From Escherichia coli O127:H6 str. E2348/69 (GTDB lineage Bacteria > Pseudomonadota > Gammaproteobacteria > Enterobacterales > Enterobacteriaceae): 64,000 nt of DNA. Shown one piece after another: positions 1,436-60,654 of the stretch. Location: the NCBI RefSeq assembly GCF_000026545.1, contig NC_011601.1. The stretch is one strand, 5' to 3'. Both the position numbers and the translations under genes were made by a program. The notes under the pieces are model-generated. The model ran no database searches and was not told where the DNA came from. It worked only from the letters and a program-made list of their open reading frames with translations. The first letter of the stretch is position 1. Each line of letters starts with the position of its first letter.

Positions 1436-2968
1436 TTATTCCTTCACCTGATGCACAACATCGATCACCGAGCCATCGCGGTAACGCACAACGGCAACGA
1501 CGCGGTCGGTGAATTCAATCGGCTGTGGTTCACCGGTCAGCAGACGCGCACGTTCACGCAGCCACTCAATAGAAACCACTTTGATCCCCGCTTCCTGCAG
1601 ACGTTCTGCCAGCTCCGGACGTGCCGGGTTAACAGCGATGCCGTGGTCTGTGACCAGAATATCGACACTGGAGCCCGGGGTGATGCAGGTCAGCACGTTA
1701 TCCACCAGCGTCGGAATACGACCGCGTACCAGCGGCGCGACGATGATGGAAAGCGCAGAGGCAATCGCGGTATCGCAGTGACCACCGGAAGCACCACGCA
1801 GTACGCCGTCAGAGCCGGTCAGCACGTTAACGTTGAACTGGGTGTCAATTTCCAGCGCGCTCAGTACCACCACGTCGAGACGATCAACCGCTGCGCCTTT
1901 CGACCCCCAGTTAGCGTACTGGTTGGCGCTGATTTCGATGTGATTGGGGTTACGGGCCAGCGATTGCGCAGCATGGCTGTCAAAGCTCTGCACATCCAGC
2001 AGTTTGCGGATCAAACCTTTTTCGTGCAGATCAACCATCGTTGCGGTAATACCGCCGAGGGCGAAGTCGGCGCGAATATCGCGGCTACGCATTTTGTCTT
2101 CCAGGAAACGGGTTACCGCCAGCGAAGCGCCGCCGGTGCCGGTCTGCATGGAGAAACCTTCTTTGAAGTAGCCAGAGTTAACAATCACATCCGCAGCGCT
2201 ACGGGCAATAAGCAGTTCGCGCGGGTTAGTGGTCATACGGGTAGCACCAGCGCCGATTTTTGCAGCATCGCCAACGCGATCAACTTTGACGATCAGATCA
2301 ACCTGATCTTGCTCAATGCTTGCCGGATTATGCGGATAAGGCAGCAGTTCTTCGGTAAGCATCACGACCTGTTTTGCGTTGTCGGCATCAACCATTGCAT
2401 AGCCGAGGGAGCCGCAGCAGGCTTTACCGGAGTAGCCGTTGGCATTACCGAATTCATCACAGGACGGGACGCCGAGGAAAGCCACATCGATATTCAGTTC
2501 GCCGCTCTGTACCAGATGCACACGTCCGCCGTGAGAGTGGATTTGCACCGGTTCCGCCAGCAGACCACGGGAGATTTCTTCCGCCAGTGGACCGCGCAGG
2601 CCAGAGGTATAAATGCGGGTAACCACGCCCTGGCGAATGTGTTCTACCAGCGGCGCATGGCAATCACTCAGGGAGCTGGAGGCCAGAGTCAGGTTTTTAA
2701 AGCCCATCTTCGCGATGACGTCCATCACCATATTGACGGTCAGGTCACCGCCACGGAAAGCGTGATGGAAGGAAACCGTCATGCCGTCCTGTAAACCAGA
2801 GCGACGAATCGCTTCTTCCAGGTTGGCGCACAGTTTGCGATCGCGCGCTTTTTCAGCCTGGTAGGTTTGCTTTGGCGAGTTCTGGAAAGCGGCAAGATCG
2901 CATTCAGCGCGACGATTCCAGGCCGCTACCCGTTCTTGTCGTTGAGATTGTTCAATTTTCTGCGTCAT
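1436..2968 (-). CDS. citF: citrate lyase alpha subunit (citrate CoA-transferase)
   Basis: ORF-track frame 1436..3010 trimmed to internal ATG (MTQKIEQ...) giving 510 aa; 'cat' verified at 2966..2968. Confidence 0.9.
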   Translation of the reverse strand: MTQKIEQSQRQERVAAWNRRAECDLAAFQNSPKQTYQAEKARDRKLCANLEEAIRRSGLQDGMTVSFHHAFRGGDLTVNMVMDVIAKMGFKNLTLASSSLSDCHAPLVEHIRQGVVTRIYTSGLRGPLAEEISRGLLAEPVQIHSHGGRVHLVQSGELNIDVAFLGVPSCDEFGNANGYSGKACCGSLGYAMVDADNAKQVVMLTEELLPYPHNPASIEQDQVDLIVKVDRVGDAAKIGAGATRMTTNPRELLIARSAADVIVNSGYFKEGFSMQTGTGGASLAVTRFLEDKMRSRDIRADFALGGITATMVDLHEKGLIRKLLDVQSFDSHAAQSLARNPNHIEISANQYANWGSKGAAVDRLDVVVLSALEIDTQFNVNVLTGSDGVLRGASGGHCDTAIASALSIIVAPLVRGRIPTLVDNVLTCITPGSSVDILVTDHGIAVNPARPELAERLQEAGIKVVSIEWLRERARLLTGEPQPIEFTDRVVAVVRYRDGSVIDVVHQVKE

Positions 2969-2978
2969 TTTGATTGCC

Positions 2979-3887
2979 TTATTCTTCGCGGATGCCGGAA
3001 AGTTCTGCACGGGAGAGCACCAGACGGGCGCGATCGATAACCGGACCGTCCACCATCTTGCCGTTCAGGGAAACCACGCCGAGGCCTTCGCGAGCGGCGG
3101 CTTCAGCGGCTTCTACGACGCGGCGGGCGTGATCCACTTCTTTCTGGGTCGGTGCGTAGAGGTTGTGCAGCAGATCAATCTGACGCGGGTTGATCAGCGA
3201 TTTGCCGTCAAAGCCCAGCTGTTTGATGTGGGCGGCTTCTTGCAGGAATCCGGCTTCGTTGTTAGCGTCGGAATAGACGGTATCGAACGCCTGAATACCC
3301 GCAGAACGCGCGGCCTGCAAAATGGAGCAGCGAGCGAACAGCAGTTCAGTTCCTTCCGGGGAGCGTTCTGTACGCAGGTTGCGCACATAGTCTTCTGCAC
3401 CGAGGGCGATACCGATCAAACGCTCGGAAGCGTGAGCGATTTCTACCGCGCGGGTAATGCCCAGCGGAGATTCAATCGCCGCCAGCAGGCCGGTGCTGCC
3501 GGGTTCACGACCACAGGCTTTTTCGATGCGCAGGATCTCTTTTTCGATATCCAGAACATCCTGAGCGGTATCGGTTTTCGGCAGACGCACAACGTCCGCA
3601 CCACCGCGAACGACGGCTTCCAGGTCGTTAACACCCCATTCGGAATCCAGCGCGTTTACACGCACAATGGTTTCAATATCGCGATACAGCGGATGTTGCA
3701 GCGCGTGGTAAACCATGCGGCGGGCGGTGTCTTTTTCACGCAATGCCACGGAGTCTTCGAGGTCAAACATCAGGGCATCAGCCGGGTAGATGAATGAGTT
3801 GCTGACCATCGCGGCATTGGCACCTGGCACAAACAGCATGCTGCGGCGGGTGCGAGTTTTACGTTGTTGCAGCGAAGCGGAAATCAT
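2979..3887 (-). CDS. citE: citrate lyase beta subunit (citryl-CoA lyase)
   Basis: ORF-track frame trimmed to ATG giving 302 aa (MISASLQQ...); ATGA overlap with citD stop. Confidence 0.9.
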
Positions 3888-42155: not shown

Positions 42156-42230
42156 TGGCTGGGGTACGAGGATTCGAACCTCGGAATGCCGGAATCAGAA
42201 TCCGGTGCCTTACCGCTTGGCGATACCCCA
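42156..42230 (-). tRNA. glnV: tRNA-Gln (anticodon CUG)
   Basis: 75-nt reverse complement tggggtatcgccaagcggtaaggcaccggattctgattccgg...cca; symbol assigned by position. Confidence 0.9.
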
Positions 42231-42278
42231 ACAAATTGGTTTTTGAATTTGCCGAACATATTCGACACATTCAGAATT

Positions 42279-42355
42279 TGGTGGCTACGACGGGATTCGA
42301 ACCTGTGACCCCATCATTATGAGTGATGTGCTCTAACCAACTGAGCTACGTAGCC
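42279..42355 (-). tRNA. metU: tRNA-Met (elongator, anticodon CAU)
   Basis: 77-nt reverse complement ggctacgtagctcagttggttagagcacatcactcataatgatgg...acca. Confidence 0.9.
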
Positions 42356-42370
42356 AGATTGTTTCTTCGA

Positions 42371-42445
42371 TGGCTGGGGTACCTGGATTCGAACCAGGGA
42401 ATGCCGGTATCAAAAACCGGTGCCTTACCGCTTGGCGATACCCCA
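42371..42445 (-). tRNA. glnW: tRNA-Gln (anticodon UUG)
   Basis: 75-nt tRNA, anticodon loop ccggtttttgataccgg on - strand. Confidence 0.9.
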
Positions 42446-42479
42446 ATAACCGGGCGCTGAACCGCTTATTCGAAGAATA

Positions 42480-42554
42480 TGGCTGGGGTACCTGGATTCG
42501 AACCAGGGAATGCCGGTATCAAAAACCGGTGCCTTACCGCTTGGCGATACCCCA
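42480..42554 (-). tRNA. glnU: tRNA-Gln (anticodon UUG)
   Basis: identical 75-nt copy of the preceding tRNA-Gln(UUG). Confidence 0.9.
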
Positions 42555-42577
42555 TCCGTACAACGCTTTCTGGTGAA

Positions 42578-42662
42578 TGGTGCGGGAGGCGAGACTTGAA
42601 CTCGCACACCTTGCGGCGCCAGAACCTAAATCTGGTGCGTCTACCAATTTCGCCACTCCCGC
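42578..42662 (-). tRNA. leuW: tRNA-Leu (anticodon UAG)
   Basis: 85-nt class II tRNA gcgggagtggcgaaattggtagacgcaccagatttaggttctgg...cacca. Confidence 0.9.
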
Positions 42663-42672
42663 AAAAAAAAGA

Positions 42673-42749
42673 TGGTGGCTACGACGGGATTCGAACCTGT
42701 GACCCCATCATTATGAGTGATGTGCTCTAACCAACTGAGCTACGTAGCC
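42673..42749 (-). tRNA. metT: tRNA-Met (elongator, anticodon CAU)
   Basis: 77-nt copy identical to 42279..42355; first gene of the operon. Confidence 0.9.
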
Positions 42750-51447: not shown

Positions 51448-51455
51448 GTCTGAGA

Positions 51456-52736
51456 TTACATTGGGAAGATAAAAACAGCGCCTGCACAAAGCGCCAGAAT
51501 GCGGATGAGATACATTGGTACAGAGAACACCCAGAATTCGGGAAGTTTGTATTTCCCCATTCCGAGGATCATGGCTGGCATTCCGTCAATAGGCATATAG
51601 CCGCCGTTCCAGCCTGAAATCACCACCGCAATCGCTGCAGCGGTCGGGTTAAGCCCAAGGCTGGTACAGGCGGCAATGGCGATGGGGGCAAAAATATAAA
51701 CAGACCCCATATTCGAACCCGTGAAGGTGGCGCAGGTACTGGTAAGCAAAGCAAAGGCGACAATAAATACAAATGGTGAGACGCCAGAACCGAGCACACC
51801 TGCAACGGCATCGCCAACCATCGCCGTAAAGCCGGTGCCCGCCAGTGCATCAGCTACACCGATCACCCCCGCCATCATTAAAATGACCGGCGCTCCCATA
51901 TGATCGCGAACTTCTTTAAAGTCCAGTACATCGATCATCAGAACAAACGCACCCGCAAGACCCGGAATAACGAAGGCGATATTTCCCAGAATGTTCATTA
52001 GCATCATGCCGATAACGCTGACAGCGAATGCGGCAATAGTGCAATATTCTTTCCAGGCAGGAAGGGCGTTAAACGTTTCCTCGCGTGCCGCCAGCGCATC
52101 CTCGGAAGCATCCGCAATGGGATGATCCGGAAGAAAACGGTAGGCAATAAGACTCCATGCGAGGAACGCCGCTGACATGATGAGATTCACCAGCGCAAAG
52201 CGCCCCATCGAAATCTCCTGATGAAAACCCGCGGTTTCGAGTACGGTCGCCGTAACGCCAAAGAGAAGCGCGAGATTGATAGGAAGAAGCGGGTGGTTGG
52301 TGGCAAATCCCAGGGGCATCATTAATTTCGATGTTGGTAGCTTTTTACTGTACGGAATGGTGGATACCAGCGACAGAATCAGCACGTAATAACCGGTCGC
52401 GCCGGTGCCTGCAAGACTGGCACCCAGCATAACAATGACTAACAACAGCCCGTAGCTGCGGTAACTGCCTTTATTGACCAGGCTTATCATCGCAGATTTA
52501 ACGTTGCTGATAAGCCGGGTTTTTTGTAGCGCTGCCATGACCACCATAAACCCTGCAATCATCACCACGCTTGGATTGACGAATCCGGCAAAAGCCTGTT
52601 GAACGGTCGAAAGTCCCGAGACAACCAGCAATAAACACGCAAGCAGTGGCGGTGCGCCAAATGGCATTTTGTCCGACATGATCAGCACGATCATCAGGAC
52701 CAGTATTCCTAATGCCAGGATCATTTCCATTGTCAT
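51456..52736 (-). CDS. ion-transporter-superfamily anion permease (putative organic/sugar-acid transporter)
   Basis: ORF-track frame 51456..52982 trimmed to ATG at 52736 (MTMEMILALG...) with RBS aggagaga; ~427-aa polytopic membrane protein; last gene of leftward island operon. Confidence 0.7.
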   Translation of the reverse strand: MTMEMILALGILVLMIVLIMSDKMPFGAPPLLACLLLVVSGLSTVQQAFAGFVNPSVVMIAGFMVVMAALQKTRLISNVKSAMISLVNKGSYRSYGLLLVIVMLGASLAGTGATGYYVLILSLVSTIPYSKKLPTSKLMMPLGFATNHPLLPINLALLFGVTATVLETAGFHQEISMGRFALVNLIMSAAFLAWSLIAYRFLPDHPIADASEDALAAREETFNALPAWKEYCTIAAFAVSVIGMMLMNILGNIAFVIPGLAGAFVLMIDVLDFKEVRDHMGAPVILMMAGVIGVADALAGTGFTAMVGDAVAGVLGSGVSPFVFIVAFALLTSTCATFTGSNMGSVYIFAPIAIAACTSLGLNPTAAAIAVVISGWNGGYMPIDGMPAMILGMGKYKLPEFWVFSVPMYLIRILALCAGAVFIFPM

Positions 52737-52749
52737 TTTTTCTCTCCTT

Positions 52750-53220
52750 TTAGGCTTCCAGCATGTCGCGCGGTACCTTAAAGACCGCTTTGCGTACTGA
52801 CGTAGCCGCGCCAATCGCGCACAGCGCCTGGTGAGGTTCCTCAGGCATAAAGACGGCGAAATCACCGGGGTGTAGAGTGATGGCGACACTGTTTTCAGGG
52901 GATGGGGCGATAAACAGATCGGGCTTACGTTCTTCATCGTTTTCGCGAGCGATGGGCCGCGTTCCCGCATTAATGCCCTCACAACCAGTAATCACCACCT
53001 GGATATCGGCCCACAGATGGTGATACTCCGTATGGCGGAGTTCGGCGGGTTGCGTGTCTGAAGTTCCCAGCGTGCAGAACCACCGACATCCTTCAGGTTG
53101 CCAGCGACCGTCCTCTCTGGCGGATAACGCCGATAACGAACACTCCGGGCACAGCAGAATATTTCTCACCCAGGCGGGAAGCCCCGCCAGCGACAAATGG
53201 TTGAGATTACCGATAATCAT
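52750..53220 (-). CDS. YhcH/YjgK/YiaL-family protein (NanQ-like)
   Basis: 156-aa ORF with PGDFAVFMPEEPH motif resembling E. coli YhcH; ATGA overlap with upstream gene. Confidence 0.75.
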   Translation of the reverse strand: MIIGNLNHLSLAGLPAWVRNILLCPECSLSALSAREDGRWQPEGCRWFCTLGTSDTQPAELRHTEYHHLWADIQVVITGCEGINAGTRPIARENDEERKPDLFIAPSPENSVAITLHPGDFAVFMPEEPHQALCAIGAATSVRKAVFKVPRDMLEA

Positions 53221-54386
53221 GATGCCTGCCCCTTAACCCACTCGGGGGAGATGCGCACGTACTTGATGGCCTGACGCCACCAGGTGTAAGCGATATGTAG
53301 CGTACCGTCCGGGCTTTGTTTGATGCTGGGGTAGGAGAACTCACGATTTAGCTTTTCCAGGGAATTGTTGGTCATGCAGTTGCCGTCGCCTTCATCGAGA
53401 TTGCGCCGCCACGGCCAGCTTTTCCCACCATCGGCAGAAATCGCTACCGTCATCGGCGCGCGTGGGGCCCCCCAGAAAGCGGAGCGTCCGACGGCTGTCG
53501 GTTCTTTGCGGCTGTCGTCGCCATCGTCGATTTCGTCATAAAGCGACGCGCGACGTTCTACTGCGCCTGCCGCACTCATCGCGTTGTACACCAGCGCCAG
53601 TTCGCCGCTGGCAAGCGTCGTTACCTGAATAGACGAATTGTTGTTGGGCAATTCGGTAGCTTGCGGCACCGACCAACTCTCGCCGTTGTCCACTGAATGG
53701 CTGATATAGATGTTGTCTGCCCAACGGCTGCGAAAGAGAGCAACCAACGTACCGTCGTGCAGCATTGTGATATTCATATGAACGCAGCCGAGACTTTGCG
53801 GCACCTCGACATCGCGCCATGAGTGACCACCGTCAGCGGAAATTTTCACTGCGCTGATATCATCATTGCCGACCCATTTTTCGCCGGGTTGGGTACGGCA
53901 ATAAAAGACGGGAAGCAGCCAGTTACCGTTATCAAGCACCGTGATCGGCTGGCGAATGAACGTGCCGGGTTTATCGAGCAGGGTGGCAATCTCGCCCCAG
54001 GTTTGCCCAAGGTCGTCAGACTTACGGTAGCGGACGATGGCCGTGTCCTGATTACCGGATATTTGTGCGGTCCATAGCAGCCACAGCACGTTATCCGGCG
54101 CGAGAAACAGCACCGGGTTTTGCTCTGAACGCGTGTCATCGTGGGAAAGTTTGACCGCATCGCTCCACTGCGTTCTGCCAGCGGGCAATCGTGATCCCCA
54201 GACAGAAATATCGGCAATACCTTCCTGTGTTCCCGCAAACCAGACGCACATTAATGCGCCATCCGGCATTGGCAGAATATTCGCCGCGTGGTTTTGCGGG
54301 CAGGACGAGGGCAGCATGGCGGTAAGCACATGCGAATCGTTTTCGGATGGACGGATGACGCCGTCACGAATAAGGGCTACAGACAT
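53217..54386 (-). CDS. BNR/Asp-box repeat protein, sialidase-fold, no signal peptide
   Basis: 389-aa ORF with four Asp-boxes (SDDLGQTW, SADGGHSW, SVDNGESW, SADGGKSW); N-terminus lacks hydrophobic signal; RBS ggag upstream. Confidence 0.75.
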   Translation of the reverse strand: MSVALIRDGVIRPSENDSHVLTAMLPSSCPQNHAANILPMPDGALMCVWFAGTQEGIADISVWGSRLPAGRTQWSDAVKLSHDDTRSEQNPVLFLAPDNVLWLLWTAQISGNQDTAIVRYRKSDDLGQTWGEIATLLDKPGTFIRQPITVLDNGNWLLPVFYCRTQPGEKWVGNDDISAVKISADGGHSWRDVEVPQSLGCVHMNITMLHDGTLVALFRSRWADNIYISHSVDNGESWSVPQATELPNNNSSIQVTTLASGELALVYNAMSAAGAVERRASLYDEIDDGDDSRKEPTAVGRSAFWGAPRAPMTVAISADGGKSWPWRRNLDEGDGNCMTNNSLEKLNREFSYPSIKQSPDGTLHIAYTWWRQAIKYVRISPEWVKGQAS

Positions 54387-54421
54387 AGTTAGACTCCATC
54401 TTAAAGTTGGTAATAGATTTA

Positions 54422-55180
54422 TTAATGCGAGTGCGATTCATGCGTTTCGATCAATGTCGAAACTTTTTTATTTCTTCTTTCACGGATAATATTGAGTGTC
54501 TCAACACTTAATGAGAAAAATATCGCGAAGTAGAGATACTCTTTGGCAATATGAATGTTGAGACTATCGGCAACCAGCAATACACCGACAAACAATAAAA
54601 AGGTTAACGCCAGTATTTTTATTGACGGCGTGGCGTTAACGAAATCACCAATTGTTTTCGCCGCAAACATCATGACACCGACGGCAATCATTACGGCGGC
54701 AATCATGATAAATATATGCTGAGAAAGGCCGACGGCGGTGATCACCGAATCCAGGCTAAACACGATATCGAGCAGCATTATCTGTACAATGGCACCGCAC
54801 AACGACAGTTGCCGCGATCCGCTGCCATGTTCGTCTTCCTGCGCGGGCGACAGCTCTTCGCGTATCTCCTGTATCGCTTTATAAATCAGGAACAGCCCGC
54901 CCCCGAGCAGAATCAACGTGCGGAACGAAATCTCCAGCGTCAGCACGGTAAAAAGCGGCTGGGTAATATGTGAAAGCCACGCAATGGATATCAGCAATAA
55001 TATCCGCATAATCATCGCGCAGCTTAAACCCAGTTTACGCGCCATATTTTGTTGTGATAACGGAAGTTTTGCCACCACCAGTGAAAGAAAAATAATATTA
55101 TCCACCCCAAGAATAATTTCCAGAAAGGTGAGGGTAATTAAAGTGAGCCAGATATCTGGCTGCATAAACCACAAAAACAT
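54422..55180 (-). CDS. TerC-family integral membrane protein
   Basis: 252-aa polytopic ORF (…TFLEIILGVDNIIFLSLV…); visibly more AT-rich than flanking island genes. Confidence 0.7.
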   Translation of the reverse strand: MFLWFMQPDIWLTLITLTFLEIILGVDNIIFLSLVVAKLPLSQQNMARKLGLSCAMIMRILLLISIAWLSHITQPLFTVLTLEISFRTLILLGGGLFLIYKAIQEIREELSPAQEDEHGSGSRQLSLCGAIVQIMLLDIVFSLDSVITAVGLSQHIFIMIAAVMIAVGVMMFAAKTIGDFVNATPSIKILALTFLLFVGVLLVADSLNIHIAKEYLYFAIFFSLSVETLNIIRERRNKKVSTLIETHESHSH

Positions 55181-55239
55181 GGGGTAATCCTTTATTCTCT
55201 TTATCTAAACTTTATAGCGGGCTGGATAATAGAGTTAAT

Positions 55240-56127
55240 TTAATTAATGTTATAATGACGAATAATTTGTTGAATCTCGCTGATCTGTTCAGGCGTGAAA
55301 TTAACCGCGTAGCGGCTATCACCAACATCATGCCCCATAAGCTGCAACGCTTTTTTCACCGCAGCCGGGGAGAATGCTACTTTATAAAGATCGGTACGCA
55401 GGCCCGTTACACTCTCCTGTGCTTCATAAGACCCTTCAATATCACCGGCATGGAAGCGAGACCAGATGGCATTGATTTCTCGCGGCGCGATGTTGGCGAG
55501 CCCAGAGATACAGGCTGAACATCCCTCGACAAACCCTTTATGGATCAGCGAATCCGGGCCGTTGAGCACATTAAAGCCGTCAATGTCGCGCACCGCATCG
55601 AGAAAACCCTTCAGGCTTTCGTCGCTTCCGGCGCTGTCTTTAATCCCAATGATATTGGGGTGCGACGCCAGAGCACGCGCGGTTTCTGGCTGGATCGTAT
55701 TGCCAGTGCGGGCCGGGATGTTATAGAGAAACATCGGAATGCTCAGTGCGTCGGCAATTGCGCTGTAATGCGCAATCAACTCTTCCTGTTTCAGCGGTAC
55801 GAAGTAAGGGGCAATGACCGACACGGCATCTACGCCAAGTTTTTCAATCTGCTGACCCAGACGAATCGTTTCGCGCGTAGAGATCTCGCCAATGTGTGCC
55901 ACGACCGGCGCACGACCAGCCACTTCATCCACGCAGGTTTGCGTAACGCTGAGCTTCTCCTGTTCATTCAACACAAAAAATTCGCCGTTGGTGCCGCCGC
56001 AAAAAATCGCGTTACCCGCTTCCAGTTGACGATTCACCTGCACTTTTAACGCCGGGATATTCAGACTGCCGGTCGCGGTAAACGGGGTGACGATAGCGGT
56101 TAATACACCTTCAATGGTTTTCGGCAT
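55240..56127 (-). CDS. DapA/NanA-family class I aldolase
   Basis: 295-aa ORF with GTNGEF and Schiff-base lysine context IGIKDS. Confidence 0.8.
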   Translation of the reverse strand: MPKTIEGVLTAIVTPFTATGSLNIPALKVQVNRQLEAGNAIFCGGTNGEFFVLNEQEKLSVTQTCVDEVAGRAPVVAHIGEISTRETIRLGQQIEKLGVDAVSVIAPYFVPLKQEELIAHYSAIADALSIPMFLYNIPARTGNTIQPETARALASHPNIIGIKDSAGSDESLKGFLDAVRDIDGFNVLNGPDSLIHKGFVEGCSACISGLANIAPREINAIWSRFHAGDIEGSYEAQESVTGLRTDLYKVAFSPAAVKKALQLMGHDVGDSRYAVNFTPEQISEIQQIIRHYNIN

Positions 56128-56130
56128 GAT

Positions 56131-57288
56131 TTATTCCTTAAATTGATGTTGCGGAAACAGTGTTTGGTAAATGGCCTGTACGTCCTGTAGATCAAGCTGG
56201 CACGGCACATTGTTCATAAGGCGCTTCACGTTCAGTGCCGCCTCGCTAAGAGAGGCAATATCCTCTGGCGGTACGCCGAGATCTGCGAGATTGTTGGGTA
56301 GCTTGAGTTGATTGACTAATGCCTGTAACCAGGTCACCAGGGCATGAGATTTTTCTTCCGCGCTCAGGGCGGTTTCCGCATCGGGAATGCAATCCCAGAC
56401 CCGGGCAAATTTCTCGACCGCCCAGGGGCGAACAAACGCCATGCACGGCGCCAGCAAGATGGCATTCGCGACGCCATGCGGCAGATGATATTTGCCACCT
56501 AACGGGTAGGAGAGCGCATGAACGAGATGCGTGCCCGCATGGGTTATCGCTACGCCGCCATAGTAAGACGCCCACAGCATTTCCAGTTTTGCGCGCAGAT
56601 CCTGAGGATCGTTCACGGCGGGTTGAATGTGCCGGAAAAGTTTACTTAACCCAGTCAGCGCCGCGTTATCGCTGACCGGATTTGCCACGGTCGCGGTAAA
56701 ACACTCCAGTAAGTGGCAAAGAGCATCAATGCCCGTGGACGCCGCAATATGCGCAGGCATGCTGGTGGTCAGTTCCGGGAAAAGCGCCACATAGTCTGGT
56801 AACAGCATCTGGGAAATAATACCCACCTTCGTGCTTTGCTCAGGGATTGCCAGAATCGCATTCGGCGTGGCTTCTGAGCCGGTTCCGGCGGTTGTAGGAA
56901 TCAACCATGATTGCACCCGCTGAGTTGGTTTTTCACCCGCAAGCAGCGCATCCAGCCCCGGAGATTGTGGATGGCAAAGCACCGATAGCAGCTTTGCCAC
57001 ATCCAACACGCTGCCACCGCCGATCCCGACCACCACATCAAAAGAGGCATCGCCAAGGACATCCATTAGCTGGCGCACATCATGATGCGTGGGCTCTGCG
57101 GGCACATTATCGATAACGTTAACCTGCGGGCAGTGCTGTTCCAGTAAGGCGCGAATCTGCTGCACACCGTCGAGCTGCGCAATATTACGGTCAGTGACCA
57201 GCAGCATTTTTCTGATGTCGGGTAAGAGCGACGTCAGGGAAGGGATAGCGCCTGCGCCGCTCAGTATCGTGCTATTGATAATTACCAC
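56131..57288 (-). CDS. iron-containing alcohol dehydrogenase family oxidoreductase
   Basis: 385-aa ORF, GTG start with RBS gagagg; GGGS motif (GIGGGSVLDVAK) and His-rich metal site (THAGTHLVHALSYPLGGKYHLPHG). Confidence 0.8.
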   Translation of the reverse strand: MVIINSTILSGAGAIPSLTSLLPDIRKMLLVTDRNIAQLDGVQQIRALLEQHCPQVNVIDNVPAEPTHHDVRQLMDVLGDASFDVVVGIGGGSVLDVAKLLSVLCHPQSPGLDALLAGEKPTQRVQSWLIPTTAGTGSEATPNAILAIPEQSTKVGIISQMLLPDYVALFPELTTSMPAHIAASTGIDALCHLLECFTATVANPVSDNAALTGLSKLFRHIQPAVNDPQDLRAKLEMLWASYYGGVAITHAGTHLVHALSYPLGGKYHLPHGVANAILLAPCMAFVRPWAVEKFARVWDCIPDAETALSAEEKSHALVTWLQALVNQLKLPNNLADLGVPPEDIASLSEAALNVKRLMNNVPCQLDLQDVQAIYQTLFPQHQFKE

Positions 57289-57457
57289 AAATAACCTCTC
57301 TTCTGGTGATTGAATTCAATCATTCAAAATGCCGTAGCCTACGTAACATGGTCTAATTTTATAATTTATTCGAGTGATTAATAACTTGAGCTTGCTCACA
57401 TTTAATCAATTGTGATTGAATATAATCATTATTATCATAAAACAACCTGGAGTGATG
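57289..57457. promoter_or_regulatory. divergent promoter/operator region of the island with two 16-bp palindromic sites
   Basis: perfect palindrome tgattgaattcaatca (57306..57321) and 14/16-identical tgattgaatataatca (57413..57428), each just upstream of one operon's first gene. Confidence 0.55.
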
Positions 57458-58693
57458 ATGGAAAAGGGAATCACTAAGCCGAGCATTCTCGTCGTTGCCG
57501 ATGATTTCACGGGAGCCAACGACGCGGGGGTAAGCCTGGCGCAGGTGGGGCATACAGTTGATGTGGCCTTTGAAATGCCTTATCACGGTGATGCCAGCGT
57601 ATGGGTGATTAACAGCGACAGCCGGGCGATGGATCCTAAGCTGGCGGCGATGAAAATAACCTCGCTGATGAGTCATCTCCCTCTGGCGAATAACCCGCCG
57701 CTCGTGATTAAAAAGATAGATTCCACGCTTCGAGGCAATATCGGCGCAGAAATTGAAGCCCTGATGAAGGCATGCGGTATAACGGGCGCAGTGATTGCCC
57801 CCGCATTTCCTCAGGCGGGAAGGACCACAGTGGCCGGTGAGTGTTGGGTAAACGGTGTGCGGATAACGGAAACCGAGTTTGCCAGCGATCCGAAAACCCC
57901 GGTATTGAGCGCCCGAATTGCGGACATCATCCGGTTGCAGACGGCCATTCCATGCCAGCCCGTTACGGTTTCTCAGCTCAGCCATTTGTCTTATGAGCAA
58001 CCGTGGATTGGCGTGATAGATGCGCAGACGGACAGCGACCTGGATCGCATCGCTGCCGCTGTGATGCAGGCTAAACAACCGCTACTGCTGGTCGGCTCCG
58101 CTGGTATTTGTGATGCCGTTGCCCGGCGCTCCGCGATTATGCCGCCACCCACCGTGCTGGCCATTATTGGTTCAATGAGCGAAATCGCTCAACGGCAGAT
58201 CGCCACACTGCATTCACACCCACGTATCACACAGATATACGTCGATGTTGAACACATTCTGGCAGGCAATGCCAGTGACTATGACGCGCGTATTGTGCAG
58301 GCCTTGCAGAAAGGCGACCACTGCATTGTCCACACCTGTAACGATTCTGTAGCAAGGCATCAGATCGACACCCTTTGCCAGCGTTGGCAGATGAGTCGCG
58401 CTGCACTTGGGGAAAAAATTTGTCGGTTTCTTGGCGAACTTACCCGGCAAGTTCTGCTTCGCACAATGCCCGATGCGCTTTATCTCTCTGGTGGCGATGT
58501 CGCAATGGCAACAGCCAGTGCGTTAGGCGCGACCGGGTTTCGTATTACGGGGAAGGTGGCGCAATGCGTTCCATATGGTCACTTTCTGGGCGGCGTCTGG
58601 TCCCGTTCGGTGATGACGAAAGCCGGTGGGTTTGGCGATGAGACCACGTTGCATCAGGTTCTGAATTTTATCGAGGAGAAGCGTAGTGAATAA
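57458..58693 (+). CDS. four-carbon acid-sugar kinase family protein (YgbK/OtnK-like)
   Basis: ORF-track frame from 57416; ATG at 57458 with GGAG 5 nt upstream; ILVVADDFTGANDAG and KKIDSTLRGNIGAE motifs. Confidence 0.8.
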   Translation: MEKGITKPSILVVADDFTGANDAGVSLAQVGHTVDVAFEMPYHGDASVWVINSDSRAMDPKLAAMKITSLMSHLPLANNPPLVIKKIDSTLRGNIGAEIEALMKACGITGAVIAPAFPQAGRTTVAGECWVNGVRITETEFASDPKTPVLSARIADIIRLQTAIPCQPVTVSQLSHLSYEQPWIGVIDAQTDSDLDRIAAAVMQAKQPLLLVGSAGICDAVARRSAIMPPPTVLAIIGSMSEIAQRQIATLHSHPRITQIYVDVEHILAGNASDYDARIVQALQKGDHCIVHTCNDSVARHQIDTLCQRWQMSRAALGEKICRFLGELTRQVLLRTMPDALYLSGGDVAMATASALGATGFRITGKVAQCVPYGHFLGGVWSRSVMTKAGGFGDETTLHQVLNFIEEKRSE

Positions 58694-59672
58694 CATTATT
58701 GCGGTAACGATGGGCGATCCGGCGGGTATTGGCCCGGAGATCATTATTAAATCCCTGAGCGAAGCCGGGCTTGCTGGTACCCCGGTGGTGGTGGTGGGCT
58801 GTGTGCGCACGCTGCGACGTATTATGGCGATGAATATCACGCCGCAGGCAGAGTTACGCGTCATTCAAAAGGTGTGCGACGCCCACTTTGCTCCCGGCGT
58901 GATTAACGTGATGGATGAGCCTCTGGCTAACCCCGATGCGCTGACACCTGGTGTGGTACAGGCTGCGGCAGGCGATTTAGCGTATCGCTGTATCAAACGT
59001 GCAACGGCCCTGGCCTTATCAGGCGAGGTGAAAGCCATAGCCACTGCGCCGTTGAATAAAGAAGCGCTGCATCTTGGCGGGCATAACTATCCGGGGCATA
59101 CGGAATTGCTGGCCCATCTTACCGGCAGCAAAGAGTACGCGATGGTGCTCTATACCGATAAGCTCAAGGTTATCCATATTTCGACTCACATCTCACTGCG
59201 TAAATTCCTGGATACTTTGAATGGTGAAAGGGTCAAAACGGTTATTCGAGTTGCGAACCACTTCCTGAAACGTGTCGGCATTGAGCGTCCGCGTATTGCC
59301 GTGGCGGGTGTAAATCCACATGCAGGGGAACACGGTTTATTCGGCACTGAGGAAATCGAGATTATCGCACCTGCGATTGAAGCAATGCAGGCCGAAGATA
59401 TTGATGTTACTGGCCCGTGCCCGCCAGATACCGTGTTCATGCAGTGCCATGAAGGGCTATTCGATATGGTGGTGGCTATGTACCATGATCAGGGGCATAT
59501 CCCTTTAAAACTGCTTGGATTTTATGATGGGGTGAATATCACCGCCGGGTTGCCATTTATTCGCACTTCTGCCGACCACGGCACCGCGTTTGATATTGCC
59601 TGGACAGGAAAAGCCAAGTCTGAGAGCATGGCAGTTTCCATCCAGTTAGCAATGCAGATTTCGCGAGAATAA
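58686..59672 (+). CDS. PdxA-family NAD-dependent dehydrogenase (PdxA2-like)
   Basis: 328-aa ORF, GTG start overlapping kinase stop by 8 bp; [14 protein letters not shown] and NPHAGE...YHDQG...[18 protein letters not shown] motifs. Confidence 0.8.
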
Positions 59673-59673
59673 A

Positions 59674-60435
59674 ATGAAGGGATATAACCGGTTAGAGCAG
59701 ATCATGGATTACCTGAAAAGCCATAATCTGGTCACCGTTGATGAGCTGGTGGCGGTAACCAATGCGTCGCCGGCTACGATTCGTCGAGACCTGATAAAAC
59801 TCGATGAGCAGGGTGTTATCAGCCGTACACACGGCGGTGTGACCCTCAACCGGTTTATTCCTACCCAACCGACTACCCATGAGAAAATGCAGCGCAGCCT
59901 GGCGGAAAAACATGCTATCGCCAGCGCAGCGGCGTCAATGGTCAAAGCGGGGGATTCCGTCGTCCTTGATGCCGGTACGACAATGATTGAACTTGCGCGG
60001 CAGATTACACATTTACCGCTTCGCGTGATCACCAGCGACCTGCATATCGCGCTTTTTTTGGCTGAATTCAAGCAAATTGAAGTGACGATTATCGGCGGAC
60101 GTATCGACGACTCCAGCCAGTCCTGCATTGGCGAACATGGTCGTAAATTGCTGCAAAATACCTGGCCGGACGTGGCATTTTTAAGCTGTAACAGCTGGGA
60201 TCTTGAAAAGGGTATTACAGCACCCACGGAAGAGAAAGCCGCACTAAAACGCGATCTTATCGCGCATGCTTCGCGCAAAATTCTCCTGGCTGACAGCTCA
60301 AAATACGGTTCATGGTCGCTGTTTAATATCGCGCATCTTAATGAACTGACAGAGATTATTACGGATAGTCAGCTTGATGGGCAGACGCGTAGAACGCTTG
60401 CGTCCTTGTCGACGCGTTTAATCATAGCCGACTAA
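59674..60435 (+). CDS. DeoR-family transcriptional regulator
   Basis: 253-aa ORF; N-terminal HTH (…[21 protein letters not shown]…), C-terminal sugar-phosphate-binding domain. Confidence 0.8.
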
Positions 60436-60654
60436 TCTATGACTCTGCGGCCAGCTCATCCGGCAATTTAATAAATGCGTCAGGCTGGCGACGTTTGGCC
60501 TTACGTTTCCAGCGCGAGGATCTGCTGGCAGTAGCGCAGAAAACGCCCCAATATCTTACGCAAAACCATTTTTTCGCTAACTAACAGTTGTCAGCCTGTC
60601 CCGCTTATAAGATCATACGCCGTTATACGTTGTTTACGCTTTGAGGAATCCACG

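Follow-up and report, generated by a model that had tools for sequence, protein, structure and literature searches.

An overlapping gene pair of Escherichia coli O127:H6 str. E2348/69, dtnK and pdxA2, lies within the 64,000-nucleotide stretch of contig NC_011601.1 (assembly GCF_000026545.1) that was analyzed in this study (hereafter, the window). Comparative sequence data indicate that this pair does not stand alone as a system for D-threonate use but is the final part of a gene module that is conserved and horizontally mobile. The pair itself is ordinary, being composed of real genes that are already known and annotated; interest lies in its setting, at the end of a module of five to nine genes that finishes in D-threonate catabolism. 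We favor, with somewhat better than even confidence, a model wherein the pair ends an uncharacterized pathway that converts a 2-keto-3-deoxy sugar acid into pyruvate and D-threonate, and then D-threonate into dihydroxyacetone phosphate (DHAP). The module's real substrate is probably a sialic-acid-like sugar acid, and possibly one that comes from plant pectin. Statements of function that go beyond family membership and gene co-occurrence are ones that we infer.

The boundaries of both genes coincide with those of the RefSeq coding sequences (CDSs) of E. coli E2348/69, to which the window is 100% identical. A preliminary description of this DNA, made from the sequence alone, had reported a kinase and PdxA-family pair with an 8-bp overlap, and both the pair and its overlap are real. 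The kinase frame, listed at 425 codons among the open reading frames (ORFs), has a conserved ATG at position 57458 and ends at 58693. At the dtnK/pdxA2 junction (AGCGTAGTGAATAA), the sequence GAGGAG lies 7 nucleotides upstream of the GTG start codon. The corresponding overlap in other genera is 8 bp in loci L002–L005 and 4 bp in L006.

The kinase carries two motifs that had been singled out as hallmarks of its family (ADDFTG and KKIDSTLRGN), which occur in the translation as VVADDFTGAND and KKIDSTLRGN and align with ADDFTGATD and FDSTAKGN of YgbK. Its Pfam architecture consists of SBD_N (PF07005; residues 10–220, E = 1.8e-53) followed by NBD_C (PF17042; residues 234–398, E = 6.1e-31). Against the NCBIfam equivalog model for DtnK (NF047819), the kinase scores 533.5 bits over its full length and passes the cut-off of 450, whereas its 106.7 bits on the OtnK model (NF043035) fail the cut-off of 350. 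YgbK shows the opposite pattern, with 544 bits on the OtnK model and 119 on the DtnK model. Thus, the earlier statement that the kinase closely resembles YgbK is wrong: the two proteins share a family but belong to different subfamilies, and the identity to YgbK of strain K-12 is 28% over 270 amino acids. The best relative in the Protein Data Bank (PDB), at 321 bits, is a crystallized “uncharacterized protein” (4xfm/4xgj) that is 91–93% identical to the kinase of the Pectobacterium module, which itself scores 615.6 bits on the DtnK model.

The second gene product scores 680.3 bits against NCBIfam model NF002891 (cut-off 583), in agreement with the preliminary assignment of the pair as a four-carbon acid-sugar kinase and a PdxA2. 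It is 75–85% identical to the PdxA2 crystal structures from Salmonella (2hi1, 554 bits) and Klebsiella (6e85, 578 bits) and reaches only 193 bits against E. coli PdxA (1ps6), and so the protein does not cluster with housekeeping PdxA, a grouping that would have spoken against the preliminary assignment. Published identities to the Salmonella proteins are 40.4% for the kinase versus DtnK and 75.4% for the dehydrogenase versus PdxA2 P58718 (PMC12928451). The structure 6e85 was also evaluated as the PdxA2 of one of the module loci fetched in this study, and this was ruled out by an identity of at most 85%.

DtnK adds a phosphate to D-threonate at O-4, and the resulting 4-phospho-D-threonate undergoes oxidative decarboxylation by PdxA2 to DHAP and CO2. 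A D-threonate kinase and a 4-phospho-D-threonate dehydrogenase are known to convert D-threonate to DHAP, and with the addition of a permease they permit E. coli to grow on D-threonate (PMC10079672). Judging from the family matches described above, the pair is a DtnK-type four-carbon acid-sugar kinase with a PdxA2-type dehydrogenase, predicted to be co-transcribed with a DeoR regulator gene.

In E2348/69, the pair is part of an island of nine genes. The plus strand carries dtnK, pdxA2, and deoR. Tightly packed on the minus strand are genes for an iron-containing alcohol dehydrogenase (Fe-ADH), a DapA-like aldolase, a TerC protein, a sialidase-fold protein of the BNR_2 family (hereafter, the BNR protein), a DUF386 protein, and an SLC13 permease. 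Conservation of this gene set was assessed by a locus scan anchored on the BNR protein, using a nine-sequence alignment and one genome per species. BNR relatives are present in at least 585 species. The 10-kb flanks of the 80 closest relatives were scored by tblastn with the island proteins and by unsupervised ORF clustering. Most frequent near the BNR gene are the DapA-like aldolase (64 of 80 loci), Fe-ADH (63), the DUF1537 kinase (62), and PdxA2 (61), followed by an SSF symporter and a short-chain dehydrogenase/reductase (SDR) at 59 loci each, DUF386 at 51, and DeoR at 50. The next gene family after DeoR occurs in only 18 of the 80 loci, where it reflects synteny at the local level. Of the 18 loci that lack a kinase gene, eight are cut contigs. 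Among the 72 species genomes with enough flanking DNA, 62 have the kinase, PdxA2, the DapA-like aldolase, and Fe-ADH together within 10 kb. In this comparison, the module has a core of six components (the kinase and PdxA2, Fe-ADH, an aldolase of the DapA/NanA-like kind, the cytoplasmic sialidase-fold protein, and a transporter), to which a NanQ-like DUF386 protein, an SDR, and the regulator are frequently added.

The hosts of these closest 80 relatives include Pectobacterium, Dickeya, Erwinia, Pantoea, Kosakonia, Rahnella, Gilliamella, Vibrio, Rhodocyclaceae, the Bacillus pumilus group, and Paenibacillus, among which regulators and gene orders vary. The same gene set is carried by Intestinirhabdus, Klebsiella, an enteric metagenome contig (L006), and Salmonella enterica subsp. 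salamae, at sites in the chromosome that are unrelated. The divergent arrangement adjoins marRAB in Intestinirhabdus and S. enterica subsp. salamae, lies beside conjugation genes in Klebsiella, and adjoins speED in another enteric bacterium. On a high-GC metagenome contig (L008), the BNR, Fe-ADH, and aldolase genes stand beside those for a GntR regulator, a DUF1537 kinase, and PdxA; here the GntR regulator and an ABC transporter replace DeoR and the symporter, and a TerC gene is nearby (2645–3688). All module kinases tested, including those from Bacillus and Paenibacillus, score highest on the DtnK model.

The control region between the two divergent operons contains two palindromic 16-mers, TGATTGAATTCAATCA (57307–57322) and TGATTGAATATAATCA (57413–57428), the second of which overlaps a perfect TATAAT (57421–57426). 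The 16-mer pattern has seven matches in the window versus 2.07 expected, and none of 100 shuffles reached seven. Both copies fall in conserved blocks of a four-genus alignment. The kinase-proximal site is present at all 50 of the 50 loci with the divergent arrangement, and in most of them the second site is about 105 bp away. In Enterobacterales, the two divergent operons appear to have a conserved palindromic operator pair in common. The DeoR protein, which is 32% identical to YgbI and reaches no NCBIfam equivalog cut-off, likely binds these two candidate operators. No match near the Rfam threshold for a riboswitch or other known RNA was observed before the TerC gene or elsewhere in the island.

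The link between the pair and the aldolase/ADH operon, which the preliminary description had drawn, is borne out both by its conservation across phyla and by the operator pair common to the two promoters. However, two further statements in that description need correction. The idea that this operon stands in for the usual isomerase and decarboxylase partners mixes two pathways, as OtnI and OtnC are partners of OtnK in the L-threonate route (PMC12540250), and the idea of a hybrid route overlooks that DtnK and PdxA2 alone take D-threonate to DHAP (PMC10079672). Homologs of otnI, otnC, and ltnD, for which a search had been recommended, do occur elsewhere in the E2348/69 genome as a complete ygbI-ltnD-otnK-otnC-ygbM-ygbN cluster (record positions 1,082,562–1,088,561), and this cluster is carried by 4599 of 5426 E. 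coli genomes. Because this separate cluster is complete, and because OtnI and OtnC belong to the OtnK route, the island is not a hybrid of two routes. Rather, the arrangement is a probable upstream feeder pathway joined to a complete DtnK/PdxA2 end-module.

Among the proteins of the putative feeder pathway, the BNR protein is the most conserved in the module (76–86% identical across Enterobacterales). It matches Pfam BNR_2 with E = 4e-65, and its AlphaFold2 (AF2) model (pLDDT 92.6) resembles GH33 sialidases in Foldseek comparisons (TM 0.70, 12–17% identity, E = 1e-17 to 1eus and 1wcq). All three analyses agree with a six-bladed β-propeller bearing Asp-box (BNR) repeats. Unlike typical bacterial sialidases, the protein has no signal peptide, as its N-terminus (MSVALIRDGVIRPSENDSHV) lacks a hydrophobic segment when read from the sequence. 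It also has no NCBIfam match and no close solved relative. Residues R145, R219, R221, R309, R371, Y352, E55, and D59 are invariant in the family.

The aldolase residues K163 and Y135 and its GTNGE motif align with K165/Y137 of NanA and K161/Y133 of DapA, and they are invariant in 60 module homologs. In addition, Arg140 aligns with Arg138 of DapA, a position at which NanA and YagE have Leu, and it is kept in 59 of the 60 module aldolases. In DapA, this Arg binds the carboxylate of aspartate semialdehyde, which is a C4 aldehyde-acid. DapA is the best-scoring family for this aldolase, although the protein fails the cut-off of the corresponding model (TIGR00674; 189.9 versus 206.15) as well as those of the NanA models, NF003164 (144.9 versus 281) and TIGR00683 (110.6 versus 382).

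The DUF386 protein is 34% identical to E. coli NanQ. It exceeds the cut-off of the subfamily model TIGR00022 (97.3 bits versus 45.5) but not that of the NanQ equivalog (91.5 bits versus 160). NanQ opens cyclic ulosonic acids and thereby gives NanA the open-chain form (PMC8141875). Fe-ADH fails every equivalog cut-off; it comes closest to the models for ErcA, lactaldehyde reductase, and 4-hydroxybutyrate dehydrogenase, and for the latter two its scores are far under the cut-offs. The transporters of the module are of anion types, namely SLC13/DASS, SSF, and, in Erwinia, ACS-family MFS.

The presence of a sialidase fold together with an anomerase-like protein and an aldolase like NanA leads us to predict a cyclic 2-keto-3-deoxy sugar acid as the substrate. 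Moreover, the succession of a pyruvate-releasing aldolase, one reductase, and a D-threonate kinase would call for a seven-carbon substrate with a carboxylate at its far end. We propose that a sialic-acid-like 2-keto-3-deoxy sugar acid is imported, that the sialidase-fold protein may release or process it, and that the DUF386 protein may open its ring. The aldolase would then cleave the open sugar acid into pyruvate and a four-carbon aldehyde-acid, which Fe-ADH, acting as an aldehyde-acid reductase, would turn into D-threonate. Finally, DtnK and PdxA2 would turn D-threonate into DHAP.

A more specific and speculative version of this proposal, which we offer only tentatively, is that the substrate is 3-deoxy-D-lyxo-hept-2-ulosaric acid (Dha). 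The sialidase-fold protein would free or open Dha, a DapA-like “Dha aldolase” would split it into pyruvate and 2,3-dihydroxy-4-oxobutanoate, Fe-ADH would form D-threonate from the latter, and DtnK and PdxA2 would carry this to DHAP. Fischer projections worked by hand place the D-lyxo centers of Dha at C4 left, C5 left, and C6 right. After cleavage between C3 and C4, reduction of C4, and renumbering from C7, C2 is left and C3 is right; of the four possible tetronates, this is D-threonate. Thus, the configuration at C5 and C6 of Dha gives exactly D-threonate after cleavage and one reduction. Circumstantial evidence also fits Dha. The transporters are of anion types, and a GH28 gene lies within 10 kb at seven loci, that of B. 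pumilus included. The host range of the module is plant-associated or gut and rich in pectinolytic genera, and GH33-type enzymes have been reported to act on Kdo (3-deoxy-D-manno-octulosonic acid) as well as Dha (bioRxiv 10.1101/2022.06.28.497753).

Several observations weigh against the proposed pathway or its Dha version. GH28 adjacency is limited to 7 of the 80 loci. A cytoplasmic BNR protein has no explained role if free Dha is imported, and import of a Dha glycoside is possible. Neither the SDR nor TerC has a step assigned to it. Both the phmmer and the family-profile alignments of the BNR protein to solved sialidases span Asp-box regions only, such that catalytic residues are not mappable, and in the conserved N-terminal motif QNHAAN the usual RIP appears to be replaced by NHA. 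The argument from Arg140 of the aldolase draws on two enzymes with Arg and two without. In addition, the substrate of the kinase could differ from D-threonate, given that the protein is only about 40% identical to the characterized Salmonella DtnK and evolves much faster than its neighbors (52–58% identity in Enterobacterales, versus 76–86% for the BNR protein). Lastly, ten loci carry a three-gene unit of SSF symporter, BNR protein, and SDR with no aldolase, ADH, kinase, or PdxA2 gene within 10 kb, and therefore the sialidase-fold protein would also work in a smaller context in these ten species.

The three-gene units are those of loci L034–L037, L040, L076, L063, L068, L069, and L086. In some Pantoea, tartrate-dehydrogenase/LysR genes lie by the unit; these were considered as a part of the module and set aside, as they look like an ordinary dmlA/dmlR-type neighbor.

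One alternative is that the kinase–PdxA2–DeoR operon is a self-contained D-threonate system like that of S. enterica LT2, with the divergent ADH/aldolase/sialidase-like operon as an unrelated neighbor. A kinase and a dehydrogenase, plus a permease, are enough to process D-threonate to DHAP (PMC10079672), the LT2 pair is controlled by a different, LysR-type regulator (PMC3139621), and the ten loci noted above have a BNR gene without the pair within 10 kb. However, this operon (dtnK, pdxA2, and deoR) includes no transporter gene, and the same palindrome is found at both ends of the common control region. Also, the pair accompanies the BNR, aldolase, and ADH genes at 62 of 72 adequately flanked loci in both Proteobacteria and Firmicutes, under varied regulators and in varied orders, and the nine genes move as one from one chromosomal site to another. 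We consider such independence of the two operons quite improbable. Still less credible, in our estimation, is that the pair mainly serves vitamin B6 metabolism by phosphorylating 4-hydroxy-L-threonine and carrying out the PdxA reaction. The pair was described as involved in pyridoxal-phosphate (PLP) synthesis in the BEN2908 genome paper (PMC12928451), PdxA2 is capable of the PdxA reaction and 4-hydroxy-L-threonine can be phosphorylated by DUF1537 kinases (PMC9997740, PMC7954711), and the island PdxA2 does exceed the general pdxA model (TIGR00557; 369.9 bits versus a cut-off of 290). In contrast, the dehydrogenase is much nearer to PdxA2 than to housekeeping PdxA, PdxA2 has been placed in organic-acid catabolism rather than PLP synthesis (PMC9997740), and the setting is a catabolic island that bears a transporter gene, is under repressor control, and is missing from 80% of E. 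coli genomes.

Alternatively, the module might degrade another sugar acid, and the pair might act on an intermediate other than 4-phospho-D-threonate (for example, one from D-erythronate or a larger acid sugar), in which case the NCBIfam names are over-extended. DUF1537/PdxA-family pairs with different substrates are reportedly part of D-erythronate and apionate routes (Zhang et al. in 2016 and Carter et al. in 2018). The identity of about 40% between the island kinase and characterized DtnK is consistent with this view, as are the scores of the Firmicute and Vibrio module kinases, which fall below the DtnK cut-off (303–423 bits versus 450). The high identity of PdxA2 to the Salmonella and Klebsiella structures (75–85%) argues otherwise. 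Likewise, the DtnK cut-off is exceeded by the module kinases of E. coli, Pectobacterium, and Gilliamella, and every module kinase has far lower scores on the OtnK and OiaK models. On balance, another substrate for the pair seems unlikely to us.

Relative to the spacer between nagE and glnS of strain K-12, the island is an insertion whose extent and component genes are given in Table 1. It occurs in 1081 of 5426 complete E. coli genomes (~20%) and is nearly always intact. The same region has been called “GR 6,” was found in all seven strains of extraintestinal pathogenic E. coli (ExPEC) and adherent-invasive E. coli (AIEC) that were compared with BEN2908, and was listed among uncharacterized features (PMC12928451). 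The island is a strain-variable trait of E. coli and a candidate niche-adaptation locus, given its presence in about 20% of complete genomes and in all seven of these ExPEC/AIEC strains. In the literature searched, no paper characterizing the module was found, and PMC12928451 is the single one to refer to it; Zhang et al. (2016) and Thiaville et al. (2016), which lie outside it, may discuss this neighborhood. As far as that literature shows, the conserved feeder module and its substrate are uncharacterized.

Table 1. The island and its genes in the E. coli E2348/69 window (positions are counted from the first nucleotide of the window).
Feature	Position	Strand	Remarks
Inserted island relative to K-12 nagE-glnS spacer	51451..60578		9.1 kb; from local alignment of K-12 spacer to both flanks
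SLC13/DASS-family permease	51456..52736	-	426 aa (RefSeq start)
DUF386 / YhcH-NanQ-like protein	52750..53220	-	156 aa; 4-bp overlap with BNR gene
BNR_2 sialidase-fold protein	53217..54386	-	389 aa
TerC-family membrane protein	54422..55180	-	252 aa; in the slot of the SSF symporter of most other species
DapA/NanA-family class I aldolase	55240..56127	-	295 aa
Fe-ADH, iron-containing alcohol dehydrogenase	56131..57288	-	385 aa; opens the divergent operon
Divergent control region	57289..57457		169 bp; two palindromic 16-mers, candidate DeoR operators
dtnK	57458..58693	+	DUF1537 / four-carbon acid-sugar kinase, DtnK type, 411 aa; RefSeq “dtnK, D-threonate kinase”
pdxA2	58686..59672	+	D-threonate 4-phosphate dehydrogenase (so named in RefSeq), 328 aa, GTG start
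DeoR/GlpR-family regulator	59674..60435	+	253 codons; separated from pdxA2 by 1 nt; third in the kinase operon

Two variants of the module can be distinguished. Most species carry an SSF symporter and an SDR, and the variant with TerC and SLC13 is present in E. coli, the K. oxytoca group, Kluyvera, and S. salamae. A TerC gene is also found at locus L089 (6887–7648). Between the island SLC13 permease and the SLC13 protein in the Paenibacillus ginsengihumi module (L087, 11337–12623), 325 of 425 residues (76%) are identical, whereas the other module proteins of these two species are only 30–62% identical, which suggests that the permease gene alone was recently exchanged across phyla. In Erwinia and some Pantoea, the module is enlarged by two genes between the aldolase and symporter genes, one for a D-2-hydroxyacid dehydrogenase and one for an MFS transporter of the ACS family (galactonate/glucarate type). 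A GH28 rhamnogalacturonidase/polygalacturonase-like gene follows the SDR gene in Erwinia and some Pantoea, and B. pumilus and B. xiamenensis also have GH28 nearby. The positions concerned in these additions are L045, 5998–8393 and 12505–13893, and L077, 1428–2819.

Other features of the window lie outside the island. Between lnt and gltI, at about 33056–34933 on the plus strand, is a gene for a 625-amino-acid protein annotated in RefSeq as “rhomboid family intramembrane serine protease,” at a position where K-12 presumably has a copy of IS5. Six tRNA genes (Met, Leu, Gln, Gln, Met, Gln) are present between asnB and ubiF (42156–42749, minus strand). We take K-12 to have seven tRNA genes there, and thus one Gln tRNA gene appears to be missing in E2348/69. 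At about 13843–14163, between lipB and lipA, RefSeq annotates a ybeF-family regulator pseudogene with a frameshift and an internal stop, in a stretch of low G+C content (0.448 for 14001–16000).

If the feeder pathway that we favor is true, then it would explain a natural source of D-threonate and provide functions for four orphan enzyme subfamilies. If Dha is indeed the substrate, a gap would be closed in the mineralization of the most complex plant glycan after this glycan has been dismantled by Bacteroides or pectinolytic bacteria. The pathway would then also offer a private nutrient niche to E. coli of the phylogroup B2 type (ExPEC, AIEC, and the enteropathogenic E. coli (EPEC) strain E2348/69) and to many plant-associated bacteria.

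The closest known counterpart of the pair is DtnK–PdxA2 of S. enterica LT2 (STM0162–STM0163), whose D-threonate pathway has been described previously (PMC10079672, PMC10971088, PMC12928451). The two systems have the same two families in the same order and adjacent to each other, with PdxA2 proteins that are about 75% identical. The predicted chemistry is also the same, from D-threonate via 4-phospho-D-threonate to DHAP and CO2, and the island kinase passes the DtnK equivalog model. In contrast, the kinases are only about 40% identical, and the regulator is DeoR in the island but LysR in LT2. Furthermore, the island pair is joined to an upstream operon of six genes (Fe-ADH, aldolase, TerC/SSF, sialidase-fold, DUF386, and SLC13/SDR) whose conservation extends across phyla.

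The E. coli ygb cluster for L-threonate and D-erythronate resembles the island in its kinase architecture (SBD_N plus NBD_C), ADDFTG motif, DeoR-type repressor, and end product (DHAP). However, the substrate of OtnK is 3-oxo-tetronate, and OtnK depends on three further enzymes that the island lacks: a dehydrogenase, an isomerase, and a decarboxylase resembling class II aldolases. The otnK (ygbK) gene of E2348/69 is annotated at 1263 bp (L097, 45432–46694) versus 1167 bp in K-12 (L090, 6336–7502), and the K-12 copy may be shortened at one end.

The upstream portion of the module is more reminiscent of nan catabolism (sialidase, NanT, NanQ/YhcH, and NanA), with which it shares a GH33-like β-propeller, a DUF386 protein, a class I aldolase with the same Lys and Tyr residues, and an anion transporter. 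The island proteins nonetheless fail all nan equivalog cut-offs, and the island has no NanK or NanE homologs. Its sialidase-fold protein is cytoplasmic and only 12–17% identical to known sialidases. A C4 acid is the aldehyde product predicted for the island, and its further processing would fall to an ADH, a kinase, and PdxA2.

The GarL–GarR–GarK route for glucarate and galactarate cleaves a 2-keto-3-deoxy-aldarate into pyruvate and a semialdehyde-acid, whose reduction yields a hydroxy-acid that is phosphorylated in turn. The pathway proposed for the island follows the same aldolase–reductase–kinase logic. However, the Gar enzymes are from unrelated families (class II aldolase, β-hydroxyacid dehydrogenase, and glycerate kinase) and convert a C6 compound to a C3 acid, whereas the island is predicted to convert a C7 compound to a C4 acid with an extra oxidative decarboxylation. 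DapA (4-hydroxy-tetrahydrodipicolinate synthase) provides the remaining parallel. It has the Lys, the Tyr, and the carboxylate-binding Arg in common with the island aldolase, and its adduct is a 2-oxo-4-hydroxy C7 diacid of which open-chain Dha is the oxygen analog. The island enzyme differs in scoring below the DapA cut-off and in residing in a catabolic operon, in addition to the housekeeping dapA gene elsewhere in E. coli, and it is predicted to run in the direction of cleavage.

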